Origin: an uncultured Eubacteriales bacterium
Lineage (GTDB): Bacteria > Bacillota > Clostridia > Lutisporales > Lutisporaceae
Direction of reading: 5' to 3'
DNA: 64,000 nucleotides
Assembly: GCA_963704785.1 (NCBI GenBank)
Contig: OY969939.1
Coordinates: 2,383,475 to 2,447,474 of the forward strand
The notes beneath the pieces were generated by a model that saw only the letters and a program-made list of their open reading frames with translations, was not told where the DNA came from and made no database searches. Below are positions 50,100-59,812 of the stretch, one piece after another; position 1 is the stretch's first letter, and each line of letters begins with the position of its first letter. The position numbers were made by a program, and so were the translations under genes.

Positions 50100-50368
50100 T
50101 ATATAATGCGTTGAGCGGAAATAGTAAGTAGTAGGATTCTTTCAGAGAGCCGTAAGGAGTATATACTCCACTGGTGTGATACGGTAGTGTCTTGTTATTG
50201 AACTCACCCGGGAGCAGCTGCCTGAAATTATGAAATTAGGGTAAGACGTCAGCCCACGTTATAGGGATAGATGATTATAGTCATCGATAAAGTGGATTTT
50301 CATATGAAAATCAATTTGAGTGGTACCACGGATAATATCTCCGTCTCTTTTTAGAGGCGGAGTTTTTT
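50100..50368 (+). promoter_or_regulatory. T-box leader (Leu specifier CUC)
   Basis: AGAGA box; specifier context GAA-CTC-A at 50203-50205; T-box sequence AATTTGAGTGGTACCACGG at 50313-50331; terminator CTCCGTCTCT-TTTT-AGAGGCGGAG plus a T-run at 50339-50368. Confidence 0.85.
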
Positions 50369-50403
50369 ATTTTTGTAATAATTATTTGAAGGGAGTGTAT
50401 AAA

Positions 50404-52852
50404 ATGACATATTCAAAAGAAATAGATCGCAAATGGCAAAAGGTATGGGAAGATACTAAATTATATAAATTTCATCCCGAAAAAGTTGATAAAAAGCTTT
50501 ATACTCTGGAGATGTTCTCCTATCCATCAGGGGCAAAGCTTCATGCAGGACACTGGTACAATTATGCACTAAGCGATTCATGGGCAAGAATGAAGAAGAT
50601 GCAGGGCTATGAGATATTTCAGCCTATGGGCTTTGATGCTTTCGGGTTGCCTGCAGAAAACTATGCAATAAAGACAGGGATTCATCCTCAGGATTCCACA
50701 ATAAAGAACATTGAGACAATGGAAAGACAGCTAAAAGAAATGGGAGCTATGTTTGACTGGGACTATGAGGTTATAACATGCATACCTGAGTATTATAAAT
50801 GGACTCAATGGCTATTCTTGACACTTTATAAAAGTGGGCTGGCATATAGAAAGGAAGCACCTGTAAACTGGTGTCCTAAGTGTAACACAGTGCTTGCAAA
50901 TGAGCAGGTAGTTGATGGTCATTGTGAAAGATGTGAGACAGAAGTTACAAAGAAAAACCTTACACAATGGTTTTTCAAAATAACTGATTATGCACAAGAG
51001 CTGCTTGATAAGCTAGAGGGACTTGATTGGCCTGAAAAGACAAAGAAGATTCAAACCAACTGGATTGGCAGATCTGAAGGTGCAGAAATAGAATTTAAGG
51101 TAGATGATGCAGATATAAGCTTCAAGGTGTTTACAACAAGAGCAGATACCTTGATGGGAGTAACCTATGTTGTGCTTGCACCAGAAAATGAGCTTGTAAA
51201 GCAGCTTACTAAGGATGCATATAAAAAGGCTGTTGCAGAATACCAGGATTCAACAAAGAAAATACTGAAATTGACAGACTTTCCACTACAAAAGAAAAAA
51301 CAGGGGTATTTACAGGCTCCTATGCTATTCATCCTATAACAGGTGAAAAGGTTCAGATTTGGATTGCTGACTATGTACTTGGAAACTATGGTACTGGCTG
51401 CGTAATGGCGGTTCCAGCTCATGATGAGAGAGATTTTGAGTTTGCAACAAAGTATGAGCTTCCTATAAAGAGGGTAATTAAGAGTAAAGAAGCTGTAGAA
51501 GACATTCTTCCTTTTATAGAATATGGTATATTGGTAAATAGCGGAGAATTTGATGGCATAACCACAGAAGAGGGTAAAATCAATATAGTAAAGAAGCTGG
51601 AAGAGGATAATAAAGGACAGCTTAAGATAAATTATAGGATTAGAGACTGGCTGGTTTCCAGACAAAGATATTGGGGCTCACCTATTCCTATAATACACTG
51701 TGAAAAGTGTGGAGCTGTACCAGTACCTGAAAAGGATTTGCCAGTATTACTTCCATACGATGTAGAATTTGCACCAGATGGAGAATCACCATTAAAGAAA
51801 AGTGAAGAATTTATGAACACTACTTGTCCTAAATGTGGAGGTCCTGCTAAGAGAGAGGCTGATACTTTGGATACCTTTGTATGTTCATCTTGGTACTATT
51901 TAAGATATCCAGACAATAAGAATGACGATAAGACTATTTGACACAGGAATGGATAAACAAAATGCTGCCTGTTGACAAATATATAGGCGGAGCAGAGCAT
52001 GCTGCAATGCATCTGCTATATGCAAGATTTATAACAAAAGCACTTACGAGATGCTGGCTATTTAAATTTTGATGAACCGTTTAAATCACTTGTACATCAA
52101 GGTACAATACTTGGACCAGATGGTTTTAAAATGAGTAAATCAAAAGGAAATGTGATATCTCCAGATATATATATTGATGAGTACGGTTCGGATGTATTCA
52201 GAATGTATCTTGCCTTTGGTTTCGCATATATTGAGGGTGGCCCTTGGAGTGATGATGGAATAAAGGCTATGTCAAGGTTTGCTGGCAGGGTTGAAAGAAT
52301 GGTTGAGCGAGTAGAAGAGCTTGCAGGACATAAAGGAAAGACTGATATGGGCAAGAGTGAAAAAGAGCTGAACTATGTAAGAAATCTCGCTATTAAGAGT
52401 GTTACAAAGGATGCAGAAGATGTTCCAATTTAATACGTCTATAGCCAAATCAATGGAGCTTTTAAATGCACTATACAAATATGACGCAGATGTCGAGAAC
52501 AAAAACATGACTCTGTTTAGAGCTGCAATTGAGGATATGATTAAGCTTCTTTCTCCATTTGCACCGCATTTTGCAGAAGAAATGTGGGAGAAGCTTGGCG
52601 AGAGCTTACTCTATATTTAATGAAAAATGGCCATCATGGGATGAAGAAGCCCTTGTTAAAGATGTAGTTGAGATTGCAATTCAAGTAAATGGTAAGGTTA
52701 AAGGCAGAATGGAAATTTCATCATCAGCAGAACAGCAGGAAATTGAGAAAATGGTAATAGAAAATGATGAAGTGAAGCCTATGCTTGAGGGTAAGCAAAT
52801 AGTAAAAGTTATAGTTATTAAAAATAGGCTGGTAAATATAGTAGTAAAATAG
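50404..52852 (+). CDS. leuS: Leucine--tRNA ligase, interrupted by at least 6 frame changes
   Basis: Collinear ORFs 50320-51339, 51405-51941, 52131-52433, 52399-52620 and 52559-52852, plus two short unlisted frames at 51.93-52.06 kb. They contain the HAGH-type motif ([11 protein letters not shown]), CP1 zinc Cys pairs and the KMSKSKGN motif. Confidence 0.85.
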
Positions 52853-55023: not shown

Positions 55024-57270
55024 ATGAAAAAAACCTTTAAAATAATAGGCATGACCTGAGCATCTTGTGTAAAAGCTGTTGAGAAGGCAGTAAAAAAACT
55101 TGATGGAATATCAGATATTAATATTAACCTTGCAACTGAAATAATGGTTGTAAGCTATGATAAAAACAAGCTAAATGAAAAAAACATCATTGGAGCAGTA
55201 GAAAAGGCAGGTTACAAGGCTTTAGAGATTGAGGCTAATAATCGCGTGGATGAAGATAAAAATAGAAAAGAAAAAGAAATAAGAACACTATGGACAAAGT
55301 TTCTTATTTCTGCGATTTTCTCTATTCCATTGCTATATATAGCAATGGGGCCAATGGTTTCCTGGTGGAACTTTCCTATTCCTAGCTGGCTTGAACCTAT
55401 GCAGTACCCGCTAACTTATGCTATAGCAGAAATATTACTGGTAATACCAGTGATTATAGCAGGTAATAAATTCTACACAGTGGGGTTTAAGGCTTTAGTC
55501 AGAAGAAGTCCCAACATGGATTCTTTGGTTGCAATGGGTACATCTTCTGCAATATTATACAGCTTGTATTCCACTTATAGAATCTCAATAGGGGATCATA
55601 TGTATGTAGAAAATTTATACTTTGAAACAGCAGGAATAATAATTACTTTGATATTGTTAGGAAAATCTCTTGAAGCAGTATCTAAGGGTAGAACCTCAGA
55701 GGCAATAAAGAAGCTAATGGGACTTACTCCAAAGACAGCTATAGTAATACAGGATGAGAAGGAAATAGTGATACCAATTGAAGAGGTCGAGGTAGGCGAT
55801 ATAATACTGGTTAAGCCTGGTGAAAAGGTACCTGTAGATGGAGAAGTTATAGAAGGATTAACTTCTATAGATGAGTCAATGCTGACTGGAGAAAGCATTC
55901 CAGTTGAGAAAAAAATTGGAGATAAGGTCATAGGTGCCAGCATAAACAAAAATGGTTCTATAAGATTTAGAGCGACAAAGGTAGGCAGCGAAACAGCATT
56001 GGCACAAATTATTAAGCTTGTAGAGGATGCGCAGGGTTCAAAGGCGCCGATTGCGCAGATGGCTGATATAGTATCAGGCTACTTTGTGCCTACGGTATTT
56101 ATTATAGCATTGGTTTCAGCAGTAGTGTGGTTGCTTGTAGGACAGACTATAGTATTTGCACTTACAATATTCATTGCAGTTCTAGTTATTGCTTGTCCTT
56201 GTGCATTGGGGCTTGCCACTCCAACGGCTATAATGGTTGGAACAGGCAAAGGTGCAGAGTACGGAGTATTGATAAAGGGTGGAGAAGCCTTAGAGAGCAC
56301 TCATAAGATAAAGACAATTGTATTTGACAAAACAGGTACAATTACAGAAGGAAGACCGGAAGTAACAGACATAGCTACCACAGAGCTAATAGATAAGGAT
56401 ATACTTTTGCAGCTTGCTGCCTCAGCTGAAAAGGGCTCAGAACATCCTTTAGGAGAAGCTATAGTGAGAGGGGCGGAAAAGCAAGGTCTGGAGATTTTGA
56501 AGCCTTCAAGCTTCAATGCTATTCCAGGACATGGCATAGAGGTTACTATAGATGGCAAGCAAATATTACTAGGTAACAAAAAGCTTATGCAAGATAGAGA
56601 TATAAGCTTGCAGCTCTTAGAAAAGCAATCGGATAAGCTGGCATCAGAAGGCAAGACACCTATGTATATAGCTATAGAAAATCAACTTGCTGGTATAATT
56701 GCAGTAGCTGATATAGTTAAGGAAAGCAGTGTCAAGGCTATAGAAAAGCTGCACAAAATGGGTATAGAGGTTGCTATGATAACCGGGGACAACAGAAGAA
56801 CAGCGGAAGCAATTGCAAAACAGGTAGGAATAGACAGAGTACTTGCAGAAGTGCTACCTCAAGACAAAGCCAATGAGATAAAGAAGCTTCAGGCAGAAGG
56901 CAAAAAGGTTGCTATGGTAGGAGATGGTATAAATGACGCACCAGCTTTGGCACAAGCTGATATAGGTATCGCTATAGGCTCAGGCACAGACGTTGCAATG
57001 GAATCAGCAGATATAGTGTTGATGCGAAGCGACCTTATGGATGTTCCTACAGCCATACAGCTAAGCAAGAGCACAATCAGAAATATTAAGCAGAACCTGT
57101 TCTGGGCATTTGGCTACAATGTTGCAGGAATACCAATAGCAGCAGGAGTATTGTATGCATTTGGTGGACCATTGTTAAACCCTGTTTTCGCCGCTGCTGC
57201 AATGTCTCTCAGCTCAGTATCAGTATTGACAAATGCATTGAGACTCAAAGGATTTAAACCATATAAATAA
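55024..57270 (+). CDS. copA: Copper-translocating P1B-type ATPase with in-frame TGA in the N-terminal metal-binding CxxC motif
   Basis: The ATG at 55024 follows AGGAGAGGGTGGGAG. It reads [48 protein letters not shown] in frame (offset of 120 nt) with ORF 55144-57270. That ORF carries [16 protein letters not shown] and the other P-type ATPase motifs. Confidence 0.8.
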
Positions 57271-57513: not shown

Positions 57514-57657
57514 TGGAGTTATGTCGGGAGAAAGCATGAAAAATACAGACTGCTTTTAGAAAGTCATATGAAAACTTGTTTGATAAATAGAATCCAATCA
57601 GGTGAAACAGAAGTCGTAGATGAGCTGTTAGTAACTATTGAAAAAATGATGAAATAA
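57514..57657 (+). pseudogene. csoR: C-terminal remnant of a CsoR/FrmR-family metal-sensing repressor
   Basis: The open frame ...KYRLLLESHMKTCLINRIQSGETEVVDELLVTIEKMMK* resembles the CsoR C-terminal helix with its H-x3-C ligand pair. The N-terminal two-thirds are absent. Confidence 0.4.
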
Positions 57658-57671
57658 GCAATTTACTTAAT

Positions 57672-57713
57672 AAAGCAAAAATTAAGGCTAGTATTTGTCT
57701 TAATTTTTGCTTT
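57672..57713 (+). terminator. Terminator of the cop operon
   Basis: 15-bp stem AAAGCAAAAATTAAG/CTTAATTTTTGCTTT followed by a T-rich tail. Confidence 0.65.
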
Positions 57714-57787
57714 ATTCTTTTTAATAATATTATTGACATATCTAAAATAAAAAATACCAAATACGTAATTAAGAAACATAATTACAA

Positions 57788-57817
57788 TTGACATACATAA
57801 CAGTAAAGGTTTATAAT
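57788..57817 (+). promoter_or_regulatory. Promoter upstream of the radical-SAM gene
   Basis: TTGACA-18 nt-TATAAT. Confidence 0.5.
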
Positions 57818-57949: not shown

Positions 57950-59449
57950 ATGAGGAACAAAAGTATAAAGTTGGTACCATGGATTTCTTATAAAAATTAT
58001 TTTTTTGATACACAGGAAAGTCGGAGTATTATATCAAATGAAAAAGAGCATACTTTTCTGCTTTTAGAGGGAGAAGCAGCAAGTATATTTACAAAGCTGA
58101 CATCTGACTGTAGTCATATGGAGCTTCTAGAATATGCAGAAAAAATCGGTGCGTCTGATGAGCTAGAGGATTTTATAGCAGAACTTTTCCAAGAGGGACT
58201 ACTGATTATAGATGACGAATATTTCGTACCAGAGCAAGTACAGAATGCCGTTTTAGATACAAACTCCTCTGGACAAGCTATTAAAAGTGATGAGTATGAT
58301 GAATTCATAAAAGATATGAAAAAATGGGGATGGAATAAAGGTCTGCTTATGTCAGCACATTGGGATATGACCTATAGCTGCAATGAAAATTGTATTCATT
58401 GCTATAACAGGTGTCTCGACACAAATCAGAACAATTCAAAAGAGCTAACTACCAAAGAAGCCTTAGCTTTAATCGACGATATGTATGAAGCAGGAGTGTT
58501 TTTCCTTACCCTGAGTGGTGGAGAAGCCGCACTAAGACAGGATTATTTTGAAATACTAGGATATGCACGCAGTAAGGGGCTGTGCGTGCAATTATTGACT
58601 AATGGGTTGATTTGGGATGCTAACTTCTCAAAAAAAGTGGCAGCCTACTGGCCTAATGAGGTAGGAATAAGCATCTACAGTGCAGACCCAGTGCGACACG
58701 ACGAGGTTACAAGGGTACCAGGCTCTTTTGAAGCTTCCATTGCCGCCTTGAAAAGCTTAAAGGAAGCAGGAATACAGGTGGAGCTTAGGAGCGTACAGAT
58801 GAAGAAGACCTTGAAGGGTTATGAAAATACAAAGAAGCTAGCTGTTGAGCTTGGAATTAAGTCAGTAATTACTGTATCTATAATACCTGCATTAAATGGA
58901 AGTCTGGAGCCTGTAGAGCAGTCAGCGGGTGTTTTTAACGAGATGGTGGTTCTTGCAGCTACAGAAGGCACACCACTGTCTGTAAGCTATATGAAGAATG
59001 CCTTTGATGATTCTGGAAAGCCAAAGAATATAGAGCAATCTTTATGCTCTGCTGGAAAATACTCACTATATTTTGACCCAGCAGGAAATATAAATCCCTG
59101 TTTGTCTCTTCCTATAGTAGTGGGAAATGTAAAACAGTTAAATCTAAAAAAATTCTGGCTGGACTCGCTTGATGATTCTGAAGCATTAAAACAGATAGAT
59201 TTGAAATATATACACAATATCAAGCTTAAGGATGTAGAACCATGTGGAACAGAAGATTATTGTAAATATTGTATAGATGTTTGTCCTGGAAACAGTTTTT
59301 TAGAAAATGGCAGCTTTTTTACTGCTCCTAAGGTCAGCTGTTTTCAGGCAAAAGCGAGAAAGACAGCCGTTGAGCTATTATCCCAAGGATTAAGCAGAAA
59401 TGAAATATGTGCAAAACTGGGCGTTCCAGTAGAGTTCGGTTGTATTTAG
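57950..59449 (+). CDS. Radical SAM/SPASM-domain peptide-modifying enzyme with an N-terminal PqqD-like (RRE) domain
   Basis: CNENCIHC (CX3CX2C). SPASM pattern CSAGKYSLYFDPAGNINPC ... CGTEDYCKYCIDVCPG. The N-terminal ~90 aa (HTFLLLEGEAASIFTKL..ELLEYAEKIG..FIAELFQEGLL) are PqqD-like. Confidence 0.7.
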   Translation: MRNKSIKLVPWISYKNYFFDTQESRSIISNEKEHTFLLLEGEAASIFTKLTSDCSHMELLEYAEKIGASDELEDFIAELFQEGLLIIDDEYFVPEQVQNAVLDTNSSGQAIKSDEYDEFIKDMKKWGWNKGLLMSAHWDMTYSCNENCIHCYNRCLDTNQNNSKELTTKEALALIDDMYEAGVFFLTLSGGEAALRQDYFEILGYARSKGLCVQLLTNGLIWDANFSKKVAAYWPNEVGISIYSADPVRHDEVTRVPGSFEASIAALKSLKEAGIQVELRSVQMKKTLKGYENTKKLAVELGIKSVITVSIIPALNGSLEPVEQSAGVFNEMVVLAATEGTPLSVSYMKNAFDDSGKPKNIEQSLCSAGKYSLYFDPAGNINPCLSLPIVVGNVKQLNLKKFWLDSLDDSEALKQIDLKYIHNIKLKDVEPCGTEDYCKYCIDVCPGNSFLENGSFFTAPKVSCFQAKARKTAVELLSQGLSRNEICAKLGVPVEFGCI

Positions 59450-59502
59450 AGGCTATAAATATAAATATTTATAGATAGTATATAAAGAGGGGAGGTGAAA
59501 CA

Positions 59503-59598
59503 ATGAAAAAGCTTACAATATCAAAAAAGGTAGAAAACTCAAATACTAACAATGCAATACCAAGAGTTATAATTTATTATGTTTGTGAAAGATTTTAG
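59503..59598 (+). CDS. 31-aa candidate RiPP precursor peptide
   Basis: Not in the ORF track. GGAGGTGA SD 5 nt before the ATG. Sequence MKKLTISKKVENSNTNNAIPRVIIYYVCERF. It lies 53 nt after the maturase stop and is followed by a compound hairpin at about 59655-59720. Confidence 0.5.
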   Translation: MKKLTISKKVENSNTNNAIPRVIIYYVCERF

Positions 59599-59812
59599 TA
59601 TTATTTCCCAATCCTTACATGTCTGCTAGACAGTATGACTAATATTTGCAGGCACAAAGGCTCCATCTTAATAGCTTTGTGAATAAAATTATTCCAAAGC
59701 TTGAATGACGGAGCCTTTTTCTTTTTGCAAATTTATTGTGTCACTTTTTCTTGTACCTTAATACTCTGTATTAGGCAGTTTTTTTGCCAAAAAGAGTGTT
59801 GGAGGGAGCACA

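Follow-up and report, generated by a model that had tools for sequence, protein, structure and literature searches.

A radical-SAM/SPASM maturase and its probable 31-residue precursor peptide in a Lutisporaceae genome

The two-gene cassette and its maturase

Near the end of a 64,000-nucleotide (nt) stretch of DNA from an uncultured Eubacteriales bacterium of the family Lutisporaceae (assembly GCA_963704785.1, contig OY969939.1, positions 2,383,475 to 2,447,474 of the forward strand; the whole stretch is referred to below as the window), positions 57950-59598 (+) hold a two-gene cassette. It consists of a radical S-adenosylmethionine (SAM) maturase gene followed by a 31-codon precursor open reading frame (ORF), with its own promoter and terminator. 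[quoted passage not shown] An earlier note, made from the letters alone, had singled out the short ORF as unannotated and precursor-like, behind a near-consensus Shine-Dalgarno (SD) site; the ORF is indeed in place behind such a site, its leader is conserved, and it is a called gene in public gene sets, missing only from the ORF track available for that note. The features of the cassette are listed below (aa, amino acids).

57788..57817 (+): predicted sigma-70-type promoter, TTGACA-18-TATAAT, matching the consensus at 12/12 positions, about 130 nt 5' of the maturase start
57950..59449 (+): maturase gene, 499 aa, with RiPP recognition element (RRE), radical-SAM, and SPASM regions
57950..58225 (+): predicted RRE, aa 1-92, with strands at 12-18, 24-30, and 35-40 and helices at 41-50, 56-65, and 69-81
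58379..58402 (+): codons 144-151 (C144-x3-C148-x2-C151, SCNENCIHCYN), ligands of the SAM-binding [4Fe-4S] cluster
59045..59341 (+): SPASM Cys ligands C366, C384, C432, C438, C441, C445, and C464, sufficient for two auxiliary Fe-S clusters
59453..59474: 22-bp perfect AT palindrome, CTATAAATAT-AA-ATATTTATAG, in the spacer between the maturase and peptide genes
59491..59498 (+): SD site GGAGGTGA, 4 nt 5' of the precursor ATG
59503..59598 (+): precursor peptide gene, 31 aa, MKKLTISKKVENSNTNNAIPRVIIYYVCERF, beginning 53 nt past the maturase stop
59599..59622 (+): untranslated remnant of the tail of an ancestral core; in-frame reading, YYFPILTC (41-aa relatives, LYPFRTTIC)
59656..59729 (+): intrinsic terminator, a nested GC-closed hairpin (59656-59718) followed by the U-run UUUUUCUUUUU

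The Pfam Radical_SAM model (PF04055) matches the maturase with E = 3.5e-17 and 63.5 bits, compared with a gathering cut-off of 29.5, which places the protein in the radical-SAM superfamily. Both the CX3CX2C triad and the SPASM-type Cys pattern recognized in the earlier note hold up in a full-length family alignment (A2), where the ten cysteines of the triad and the SPASM region are invariant in 20/20 sequences. The SPASM cysteines are spaced C366-x12-G379-x4-C384 ... C432-x5-C438-x2-C441-x3-C445 ... C464; the pattern CX9-15GX4C ... CX2CX5CX3C ... C is thus present, with the middle block in swapped spacing order (x5, then x2). The Pfam SPASM model (PF13186) scores 21.3 bits, slightly under its gathering cut-off of 21.5, and several relatives have a precomputed match to it. 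Alignment A2 contains two further family motifs, HD-x-[VI]-T-x-V-P-G-S-F and LAAT-x-G-S-P.

The N-terminal segment of about 90 aa, which had been read as a PqqD-type peptide-recognition element, is supported as an RRE by fold and by profile, and leader binding by this domain is predicted. In an AlphaFold2 (AF2) model of aa 1-92 alone, with a predicted local distance difference test (pLDDT) score of 90.4, strands are followed by three helices. Foldseek matched this model to TbiB1 (5v1v; template modeling [TM] scores, 0.69/0.72) and TfuB1 (6jx3; 0.66/0.71), as well as to CteB and TruD, and the domain sequence profile matched TbiB1 among PDB sequences at E = 7e-4; the Pfam PqqD model gave no match to the maturase N terminus. 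TbiB1 and TfuB1 are stand-alone B1 RREs of lasso peptide systems, and both structures are leader-peptide complexes. The likeness is confined to the N-terminal domain, and the B2 protease and C cyclase of lasso systems are absent here.

The AF2 model of the complete maturase (pLDDT, 82.8; predicted TM score, 0.85) comprises the N-terminal strands and three helices, a disordered linker (aa 89-112), the barrel, and the SPASM region. Foldseek placed SuiB, SkfB, TigE, BlsE, and PqqE at the top and also matched EpeE; SuiB (5v1q and 5v1t) aligned with E about 1e-11 over ∼490 columns at 13-15% identity. When the A2 profile was compared with PDB sequences, SkfB (6efn) was matched at 1e-22, PqqE at 2e-16, and CteB at 1e-7, with SuiB marginal at ∼1e-3. 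The nearest relatives are thus RiPP maturases (SkfB and PqqE by sequence; SuiB, SkfB, and TigE by fold) rather than the anaerobic sulfatase-maturating enzymes (anSMEs), a grouping that the earlier note had proposed to check. No anSME structure occurs among the PDB matches, the anSME model is absent among the best 25 of the 52 NCBIfam families matched, and there is no sulfatase gene in the locus; together with the presence of an RRE, this speaks against anSME membership. The AlbA model is likewise not among these best 25 families.

Two further regions of the enzyme family were observed. In the window protein, aa 465-499 (59342-59446) are a tail, conserved family-wide, of two helices with a conserved LGVPxxFG motif and a weak HTH_23 match (E = 0.046). 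Many family members of 570-610 aa (P0006-P0015; A2 columns ∼545-650) carry a C-terminal extension of ∼90 aa past SPASM, absent from the window protein, that includes a Cys-bearing segment (e.g., CGSSSPLTS or GCSRCCDSTP) and a conserved G-x-x-x-T-x-x-A-L-x-x-F.

Orthologous loci with the gene order copA-copZ-csoR-radical SAM-peptide-cupin-uvrD were found in a Lutisporaceae metagenome-assembled genome (MAG; L002) and in two Logan contigs (L003 and L169), and in a sister isolate (L168; OW818645.1, 3196-7912) the whole cassette is duplicated in tandem (copies A and B). The SD site is kept in 5/5 aligned orthologous and paralogous peptide genes, and the inverted repeat of the terminator is also kept in L168. 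The promoter and the closing compound hairpin of the earlier note both stand: the 140 nt between 59596 and 59735 have a folding energy of -41.3 kcal/mol (z = -5.5), and 0/200 shuffled sequences were as stable. An additional terminator-like hairpin (57669-57716) lies upstream of the promoter, between the cop genes and the cassette, and inspection of the cassette sequence revealed no terminator-like site between the maturase and peptide genes. The palindrome in the spacer hardly differs among the window, L002, L003, and the two L168 copies, in contrast to the more variable neighboring coding DNA, and this element may serve as an operator or in RNA processing or stability. A scan of 57.5-59.9 kb against Rfam (E <= 1), the 5' untranslated region and the spacer included, yielded nothing.

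A precursor family shared across phyla

The 31-aa peptide can be divided into a leader of approximately codons 1-16 (59503-59550) and a core of approximately codons 17-31 that ends in CERF and is followed by the TAG stop codon at 59596-59598. Its only Cys, at codon 28 (59584-59586), is followed by a Glu that is invariant in the clade. The leader, MKKLTISKKVEN (MKKLTISKKV...), is common to the peptides of L002, L003, L169, and L168 and to those of distant precursors, such as MKKLGVSKVV and MNKLGISKKVKV; the last of these, from locus L103, is identical to the window leader in 9/12 residues. Conservation of the protein sequence of the leader, in orthologous as well as in distant loci, shows the 31-codon ORF to be a real gene, beyond chance.

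The maturase is far from the orphan that it had been called. An exhaustive HMMER search of 1.84 billion representatives retrieved >100 sequences (representatives of clusters at 50% identity) that match over the RRE, the barrel, and SPASM with 262-741 bits. The full-length relatives come from uncultured Proteobacteria, Methylococcaceae, Planctomycetota, Verrucomicrobiales, Flavobacteriaceae, Pelagibacteraceae, and many metagenomes. Relatives with 30-51% identity over the full length carry ORFs of 31-41 aa at the equivalent position, for example MNKLGISKKVKVQAVVRSGCGRSSTNQCGGSYKNG, MKKLGVSKVVSVERKPLTGCPSMSEVSCGINYRAS, and MFKIKTRVRYTKRPRQGCTRQSDANCGIGTRGA. A co-directional short ORF begins 25-70 nt past the enzyme stop in almost every family locus; in two loci, it lies upstream.

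A hidden Markov model (HMM) of the precursor was built from 20 of these short ORFs. It matched in 31 family loci with E <= 3e-5, 11 of which were independent of model building, whereas the other radical-SAM/SPASM loci that were fetched gave nothing below E = 1e-3 (best, 0.0023). The conserved short ORF beside homologous enzymes, for which the earlier note had suggested a search, is therefore a feature of the family. The consensus precursor combines the leader K-K-L-G-[IV]-S-K-K-V with the core G-C-x7-C-G-x-x-Y-R (in its usual form, MKKLG[IV]SKKV...G-C-x7-C-G); the seven positions that separate the two Cys are hypervariable, and the flanks are fixed. The more general leader motif, K-K-L-x-[IV]-S-K-K-V, extends from Clostridia to Pelagibacteraceae, and the Pelagibacteraceae peptide alone was found on 76 contigs.

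The relation of the window peptide to this G-C-x7-C-G family, which was defined in the present analysis and has no curated model, is less direct. The maturase is a full-length member (32-38% identity) and the leader fits, whereas the core has a single Cys and lacks the flanking Gly. The precursor HMM misses the peptides of the window clade, the best of which (L168 copy A) reaches E = 0.45, and a peptide-profile search of a set of 5.8 billion proteins found only three clade peptides. The window peptide and ten relatives matched no NCBIfam or Pfam model, except for one weak TQQ match (15.5 bits, compared with a cut-off of 50) of a single distant peptide.

Curated models do not cover the enzyme either: no NCBIfam model reaches its cut-off for the window maturase, and the same was found for ten sampled family members and two members of a sister subfamily. 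The sub-threshold scores include those of MftC (TIGR03962; 98.4, with a cut-off of 265), the sactisynthases StsB (78.5 of 625) and SkfB (TIGR04403; 52 of 300), and PqqE (TIGR02109; 71.5 of 381). The highest, AhbD (120.9 bits) and NirJ2 (119.9 bits), raise the alternative that the enzyme is a small-molecule or tetrapyrrole radical-SAM protein of the AhbD/NirJ type, with the downstream ORF incidental. This is extremely unlikely, given that both scores are far under the cut-offs of 500 and the matches do not extend beyond the generic radical-SAM core (aa 137-318 and 137-457), that an RRE is present, and that enzyme and short ORF occur together in many phyla; AhbD and NirJ are not known to have an RRE. 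Memberships in the PqqE, MftC, and AhbD/NirJ families are all contradicted by scores under the respective cut-offs, and no pqq genes are found in the neighborhood of the cassette. Of the candidacy for a new RiPP set out in the earlier note, the pairing of maturase and precursor is thus supported; the AhbD/NirJ2 matches that run counter to it concern the generic core only.

Two groups of relatives illustrate the diversity of the surrounding genes. In nine loci of the Gram-negative type (L008-L012, L089, L090, L092, and L093), one of them a Pelagibacteraceae single-amplified genome, the precursor is followed by a conserved protein of ∼300 aa with the motifs HGR, KGxGW, and H...N...D-x-E, which has no Pfam or NCBIfam match and only weak matches to kinases (KSR2, E = 0.11). 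Five of these nine loci also contain a glycosyltransferase family 9 (GT9) heptosyltransferase-like gene (PF01075, 1e-16 to 1e-24). Such neighbors hint at phosphorylated or glycosylated peptide products in those loci; both genes are absent from the window clade. In the sister subfamily (L170, 336-1911; L171, 1097-3475), the precursor lies upstream of the enzyme and ends in ...KRLKISRRAKQSLYIGSGVSIYSYTTHGACCCV or ...KKLKIAAKLKFKVAYENRIGQTGYTDSQGCC, with the leaders KRLKISRRAK and KKLKIAAKLK and the C termini GCC or ACCCV. Precursor and enzyme are followed there by an ATP-grasp (TupA-like) gene, and L170 has two further radical-SAM genes. Because the sister subfamily keeps the motif with Cys-rich C termini, the C-terminal Cys is the one feature that does not change among the cores; together with a basic K-L-x-I leader, it is what the whole superfamily has in common.

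The family is, to judge from the sequences collected, large and multi-phylum, and it has no curated model. No paper on the enzyme or precursor family was found in full-text literature searches, and it may still be an uncharacterized group in the compendium supplements of Precord et al. 2023 (PMC10288494).

The shortened core and the state of the cassette

Within the window clade, the core has been remodeled. The peptides encoded directly after the enzyme in L002, L003, and L169 (MKKLIISRKVESLDSNKTKFENYVTYTIDCELYPFRTTICD, MKKLTISRKVESLNSDKTKYENYVTYTLDCELYPFRTTICE, and MKKLTISRKVESLNSNKSKYENYLTYTLDCELYPLRTTICE, respectively) are 41 aa long and have two Cys (DCELYPFRTTICD); a fourth close ortholog (P0004) falls outside the peptide comparison, as both of its contigs stop at the stop codon of the enzyme. 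DNA identity between the window and L002 or L003 is ∼90% in the spacer, SD site, leader, and terminator and drops to 33-51% over the core (∼59535-59644), the sole hotspot of substitution-driven divergence in the locus. The window peptide ends at a TAG three codons past its only Cys, and the ancestral stop is missing. The stretch past the TAG that resembles the tail of the longer cores is unconstrained: the window and L168 copy B differ in it nonsynonymously, and copy A has a TGA two codons after the TAG. The single-Cys core is thus a truncated derivative of a two-Cys core. The earlier note had described a single-Cys core unlike SCIFF and multi-Cys precursors; the count of one Cys stands, with the amendment that this core is the shortened form of a two-Cys ancestor.

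Two other explanations of the TAG were rejected. Read-through, or insertion of pyrrolysine (..CERF-X-YYFPILTC..), is contradicted by the use of TAG as the terminal codon in 6/40 long ORFs of the window, the maturase gene included, by the TGA two codons on in paralog A, and by the nonsynonymous changes that gather in the post-TAG frame; moreover, the product would enter the terminator. A sequencing error is contradicted by the presence of the stop in both paralogs of an independent genome, OW818645.1.

The duplicated cassette of L168 provides a second view of the same locus. Copy A combines a broken enzyme (248 + 211 aa), in which 66 nt are deleted, with the peptide MKKLTISKKVKNSNSNISIPTLWTYSDVWCEYKN; in copy B, the 499-aa enzyme is intact, with 95% identity to that of the window, and the peptide is MKKLTISKKVENSNTNNAIPRVIIYYVCEAF. 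The peptides of the window, copy A, and copy B all have the TAG at one aligned position and keep Cys-Glu (3/3). The two enzyme copies are near-identical, with a synonymous divergence (dS) of 0.007-0.03, and were either homogenized or recently duplicated. The two peptide genes differ from each other far more: the leader has a nonsynonymous divergence (dN) of 0.054 and a dS of 0.635 (from 16 codons only), and the cores share 29/48 aligned nt, with 9 gap positions in multiples of three, followed by 19/27 nt just past the stop. Because the leaders and cores have diverged this much while the enzyme copies have not, the peptide alleles are old and have been kept as coding. The pattern suggests either that the enzyme genes underwent gene conversion or that a foreign peptide allele was acquired.

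The cassette is probably still functional in its source genome, to judge from the signatures of selection. The ratio dN/dS of the maturase is 0.216 in comparison with L168 copy B (dS, 0.095) and 0.144 in comparison with L002, and neighboring genes fall at 0.05-0.17; by these estimates, the maturase is under purifying selection. All of the family-invariant residues are retained in the window enzyme, and the promoter, SD site, and terminator are intact. A working cassette is favored over a decaying one because the TAG is common to the two divergent L168 paralogs and because dN/dS of the enzyme is 0.22.

Several observations weigh against a functional RiPP cassette. All of the curated maturase models compared (StsB, SkfB, MftC, and PqqE) are missed; the second Cys, which all 20 aligned G-C-x7-C-G precursors and the three MAG and Logan relatives have, is absent, and the DNA past the TAG resembles the relic of a lost tail. 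The first of the two tandem L168 enzyme copies is broken, and the leader dN/dS estimate comes from no more than 16 codons. Finally, there is no protease or exporter nearby that would account for leader removal and export.

Some of these points fit a decaying remnant, in which a nonsense TAG at 59596 removed the ancestral second Cys, the peptide became an unproductive substrate, and the cassette is heading for loss. The two-Cys state of all 20 aligned precursors and the three relatives, the YYFPILTC relic, and the disruption of L168 copy A by a break and a 66-nt deletion are all in line with decay, as are the internal deletion of the adjacent csoR in the window genome and the faster evolution of the maturase, which is 78% identical to that of L002 at the amino acid level compared with 88-94% for the flanking genes. 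Decay is nevertheless unlikely. The TAG is older than both the split of alleles A and B and the split of the isolates, yet each genome retains an intact enzyme ORF at low dN/dS; the leader, SD site, and promoter are unchanged, comparison of the alleles shows purifying selection on the leader, and the core indels are in frame; and copA only seems truncated, owing to a conserved in-frame TGA. Decay of the region in general was also considered and is weakened by the conservation of this TGA and by the occurrence of a shorter histidine kinase in the sister isolate as well, which leaves csoR as the only gene that is clearly deleted.

The neighbors of the cassette are copA, copZ, and the csoR remnant upstream and a cupin/phosphomannose isomerase-like gene and a UvrD-like helicase gene downstream. 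In agreement with the earlier note, no protease, exporter, or immunity gene adjoins the cassette among the neighboring genes examined. The position directly after copA-copZ-csoR, found in 5/5 related clostridial loci, suggests an alternative in which the peptide is not a secreted product and instead gives rise to a cofactor or a metal-binding peptide for copper homeostasis, by the logic of pyrroloquinoline quinone (PQQ), mycofactocin, or chalkophores. Such a role would account for both the position and the absence of a protease and an exporter; the SCIFF, PQQ, and mycofactocin cores are likewise minimal two-gene arrangements that lack an exporter, MftC and PqqE score comparatively well among the sub-threshold matches, and a thiol-bearing peptide could bind Cu(I). 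This role is given low weight, and we consider it very improbable, because the synteny is confined to a narrow clade and because the cassette is set apart from the cop genes by the upstream terminator and by a promoter of its own. The flanking genes in this clade are 88-94% identical, as expected from common ancestry, and distant family members lie beside WD40, kinase-like, GT9, or ATP-grasp genes; in addition, a core that is hypervariable within the clade is atypical of a cofactor precursor.

The genes upstream of the cassette show irregularities of their own. What is left of csoR (57521-57657) is a 5' stub of 12 codons, with TAG at its end, fused to the last 36 codons (residues 86-121), apparently through a deletion between two 9-bp repeats (CAGACTGCT); the gene is intact (115-121 aa) in L002, L003, L169, and L168. 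In copA (55025-57270), an in-frame TGA (55057-55059) replaces the first Cys of the N-terminal heavy-metal-associated motif. Four related genomes carry it at the identical codon (the window; L168, ∼310; L002, ∼1701; L169, ∼193), and gene callers begin CopA after it. This TGA is a candidate selenocysteine codon (GMT-U-xx-C) rather than the mark of a pseudogene; a small hairpin 16 nt 3' of it is not significant (z = -0.9). Farther upstream (50102-52852), a leucyl-tRNA synthetase-like gene follows a T-box leader (Rfam RF00230, 120 bits) and is broken up into five ORFs that lie in different frames (50320-51339, 51405-51941, 52131-52433, 52399-52620, and 52559-52852), through either assembly indel errors or a pseudogene copy.

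Predicted reaction and known systems

The reaction proposed for the cassette would begin with binding of the conserved leader (MKKLTISKKV...) by the RRE, to which the leader would probably add a beta-strand. The CX3CX2C cluster would cleave SAM to give a 5'-deoxyadenosyl radical, which would take a hydrogen atom from a core residue, and the substrate radical would most likely be captured by the sulfur of Cys28, within the clade-invariant Cys-Glu. The two SPASM auxiliary clusters would serve in substrate ligation and electron removal, and the aromatic C-terminal core would come to hold one intramolecular thioether ring (-2 Da), of the sactionine or ranthionine type. Taken as a whole, a self-contained two-gene RiPP cassette that works in this manner is somewhat more probable than not. 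The domain architecture, the RRE fold, the joint occurrence of enzyme and precursor in many phyla, the purifying selection on the enzyme, and the contrast between a conserved leader and a hypervariable core are directly visible in the data. Its less direct elements are binding of this leader by the RRE, continued use of the single-Cys peptide as a substrate, and, above all, formation of a thioether; these we infer.

A Cys thioether is the best guess for the chemistry, and a tentative one. It is proposed because Cys is the only universally retained residue of the core, because SkfB is the nearest solved relative by sequence, and because the spacing of Cys28 matches: by our own count, it lies 24 residues after the leader Leu, equal to the second Cys of the G-C-x7-C-G cores. 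The enzyme may, with a somewhat lower probability, catalyze a different reaction, such as a C-C or C-O cross-link among Tyr25, Tyr26, Arg30, and Phe31, an epimerization, or a transformation of the Cys. The fold matches lend themselves to this reading, as the best over the full length is SuiB, which forms a Lys-Trp C-C cross-link, and TigE (a cyclopropylglycine synthase) and EpeE (an epimerase) were also matched. So do the peptides: the cores of the clade are aromatic-rich around the Cys, most family cores have an aromatic or basic residue 2-5 positions past it, and a hypervariable seven-residue loop with fixed flanks fits a scaffold whose cross-link need not use loop residues. However, Cys is the sole core residue conserved in all subfamilies, including the sister subfamily that ends in GCC or ACCCV, the best solved relative at the sequence level is a sactisynthase, and likeness of the SPASM fold is no predictor of chemistry; a reaction other than thioether formation is accordingly judged rather unlikely.

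Of the characterized systems, SkfB and SkfA, which produce the sporulation killing factor of Bacillus subtilis, offer the best solved relative by sequence and the second by fold. Here too, a radical-SAM peptide maturase with auxiliary Fe-S clusters is paired with a short precursor. SkfB forms a single thioether from Cys to a C-alpha, the chemistry proposed for the window enzyme. Conversely, the score in TIGR04403 is 52 of the 300 needed, the precursors show no similarity, and the export, immunity, and cyclization genes contained in the skf operon have no counterparts here. The auxiliary domain of SkfB is twitch-like and partial, whereas the window enzyme has a full SPASM region with seven Cys. 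SuiB, the Lys-Trp cross-linker of streptide, offers the best full-length fold, with an N-terminal RRE, a barrel, and a SPASM region with two auxiliary clusters; it differs in its low identity (13-15%) and in forming a C-C rather than the S-C bond presumed here, and the window precursor has no Lys/Trp motif.

The SCIFF/ranthipeptide systems, represented by CteB among both the sequence and the fold matches, share with the window an enzyme of the RRE-radical SAM-SPASM type, an origin in Clostridia, and, as proposed here, Cys-based cross-links. SCIFF cassettes are minimal, with maturase and precursor and without a dedicated exporter or protease. Their precursors have six Cys in a conserved C-terminal region, whereas the window peptide has one, and neither the window maturase nor the peptide matches the SCIFF/ranthipeptide models of NCBIfam, so the cassette does not belong to this group. 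MftC with MftA and PqqE with PqqA are likewise RRE-dependent radical-SAM/SPASM enzymes that act on the C-terminal residues of a short peptide, and the glycosyltransferase gene beside some members of the wider family recalls mycofactocin, a system that includes a glycosyltransferase. In contrast to these systems, where MftB and PqqD are separate proteins, the RRE is fused to the enzyme here; the window core is hypervariable within the clade, and the precursor ends in CERF, without the C-terminal Gly-Val-Tyr or Glu-x3-Tyr.

Radical-SAM/SPASM maturases are a main source of new peptide cross-link chemistry, and an uncharacterized family with a defined precursor is a concrete target. Should the window cassette prove inactive, it would be a case of ordinary decay of a RiPP locus. 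If it is active, the window peptide, with one Cys and a very short core, would be the simplest substrate for learning the reaction of the family enzyme, and the two divergent peptides beside near-identical enzymes in L168 are a natural test of substrate tolerance. It is conceivable, although doubtful, that the window cassette is the smallest and most tractable member of a multi-phylum RiPP superfamily whose enzyme installs a type of cross-link unseen in sactipeptides, ranthipeptides, and cyclophane RiPPs; if so, the single Cys and the 15-residue core would allow the bond to be mapped unambiguously on the window peptide. The value of the finding lies mainly in the simplicity of this substrate and in the link at the family level, by which a 31-aa clostridial ORF is now connected to a multi-phylum precursor family that includes abundant aquatic lineages.

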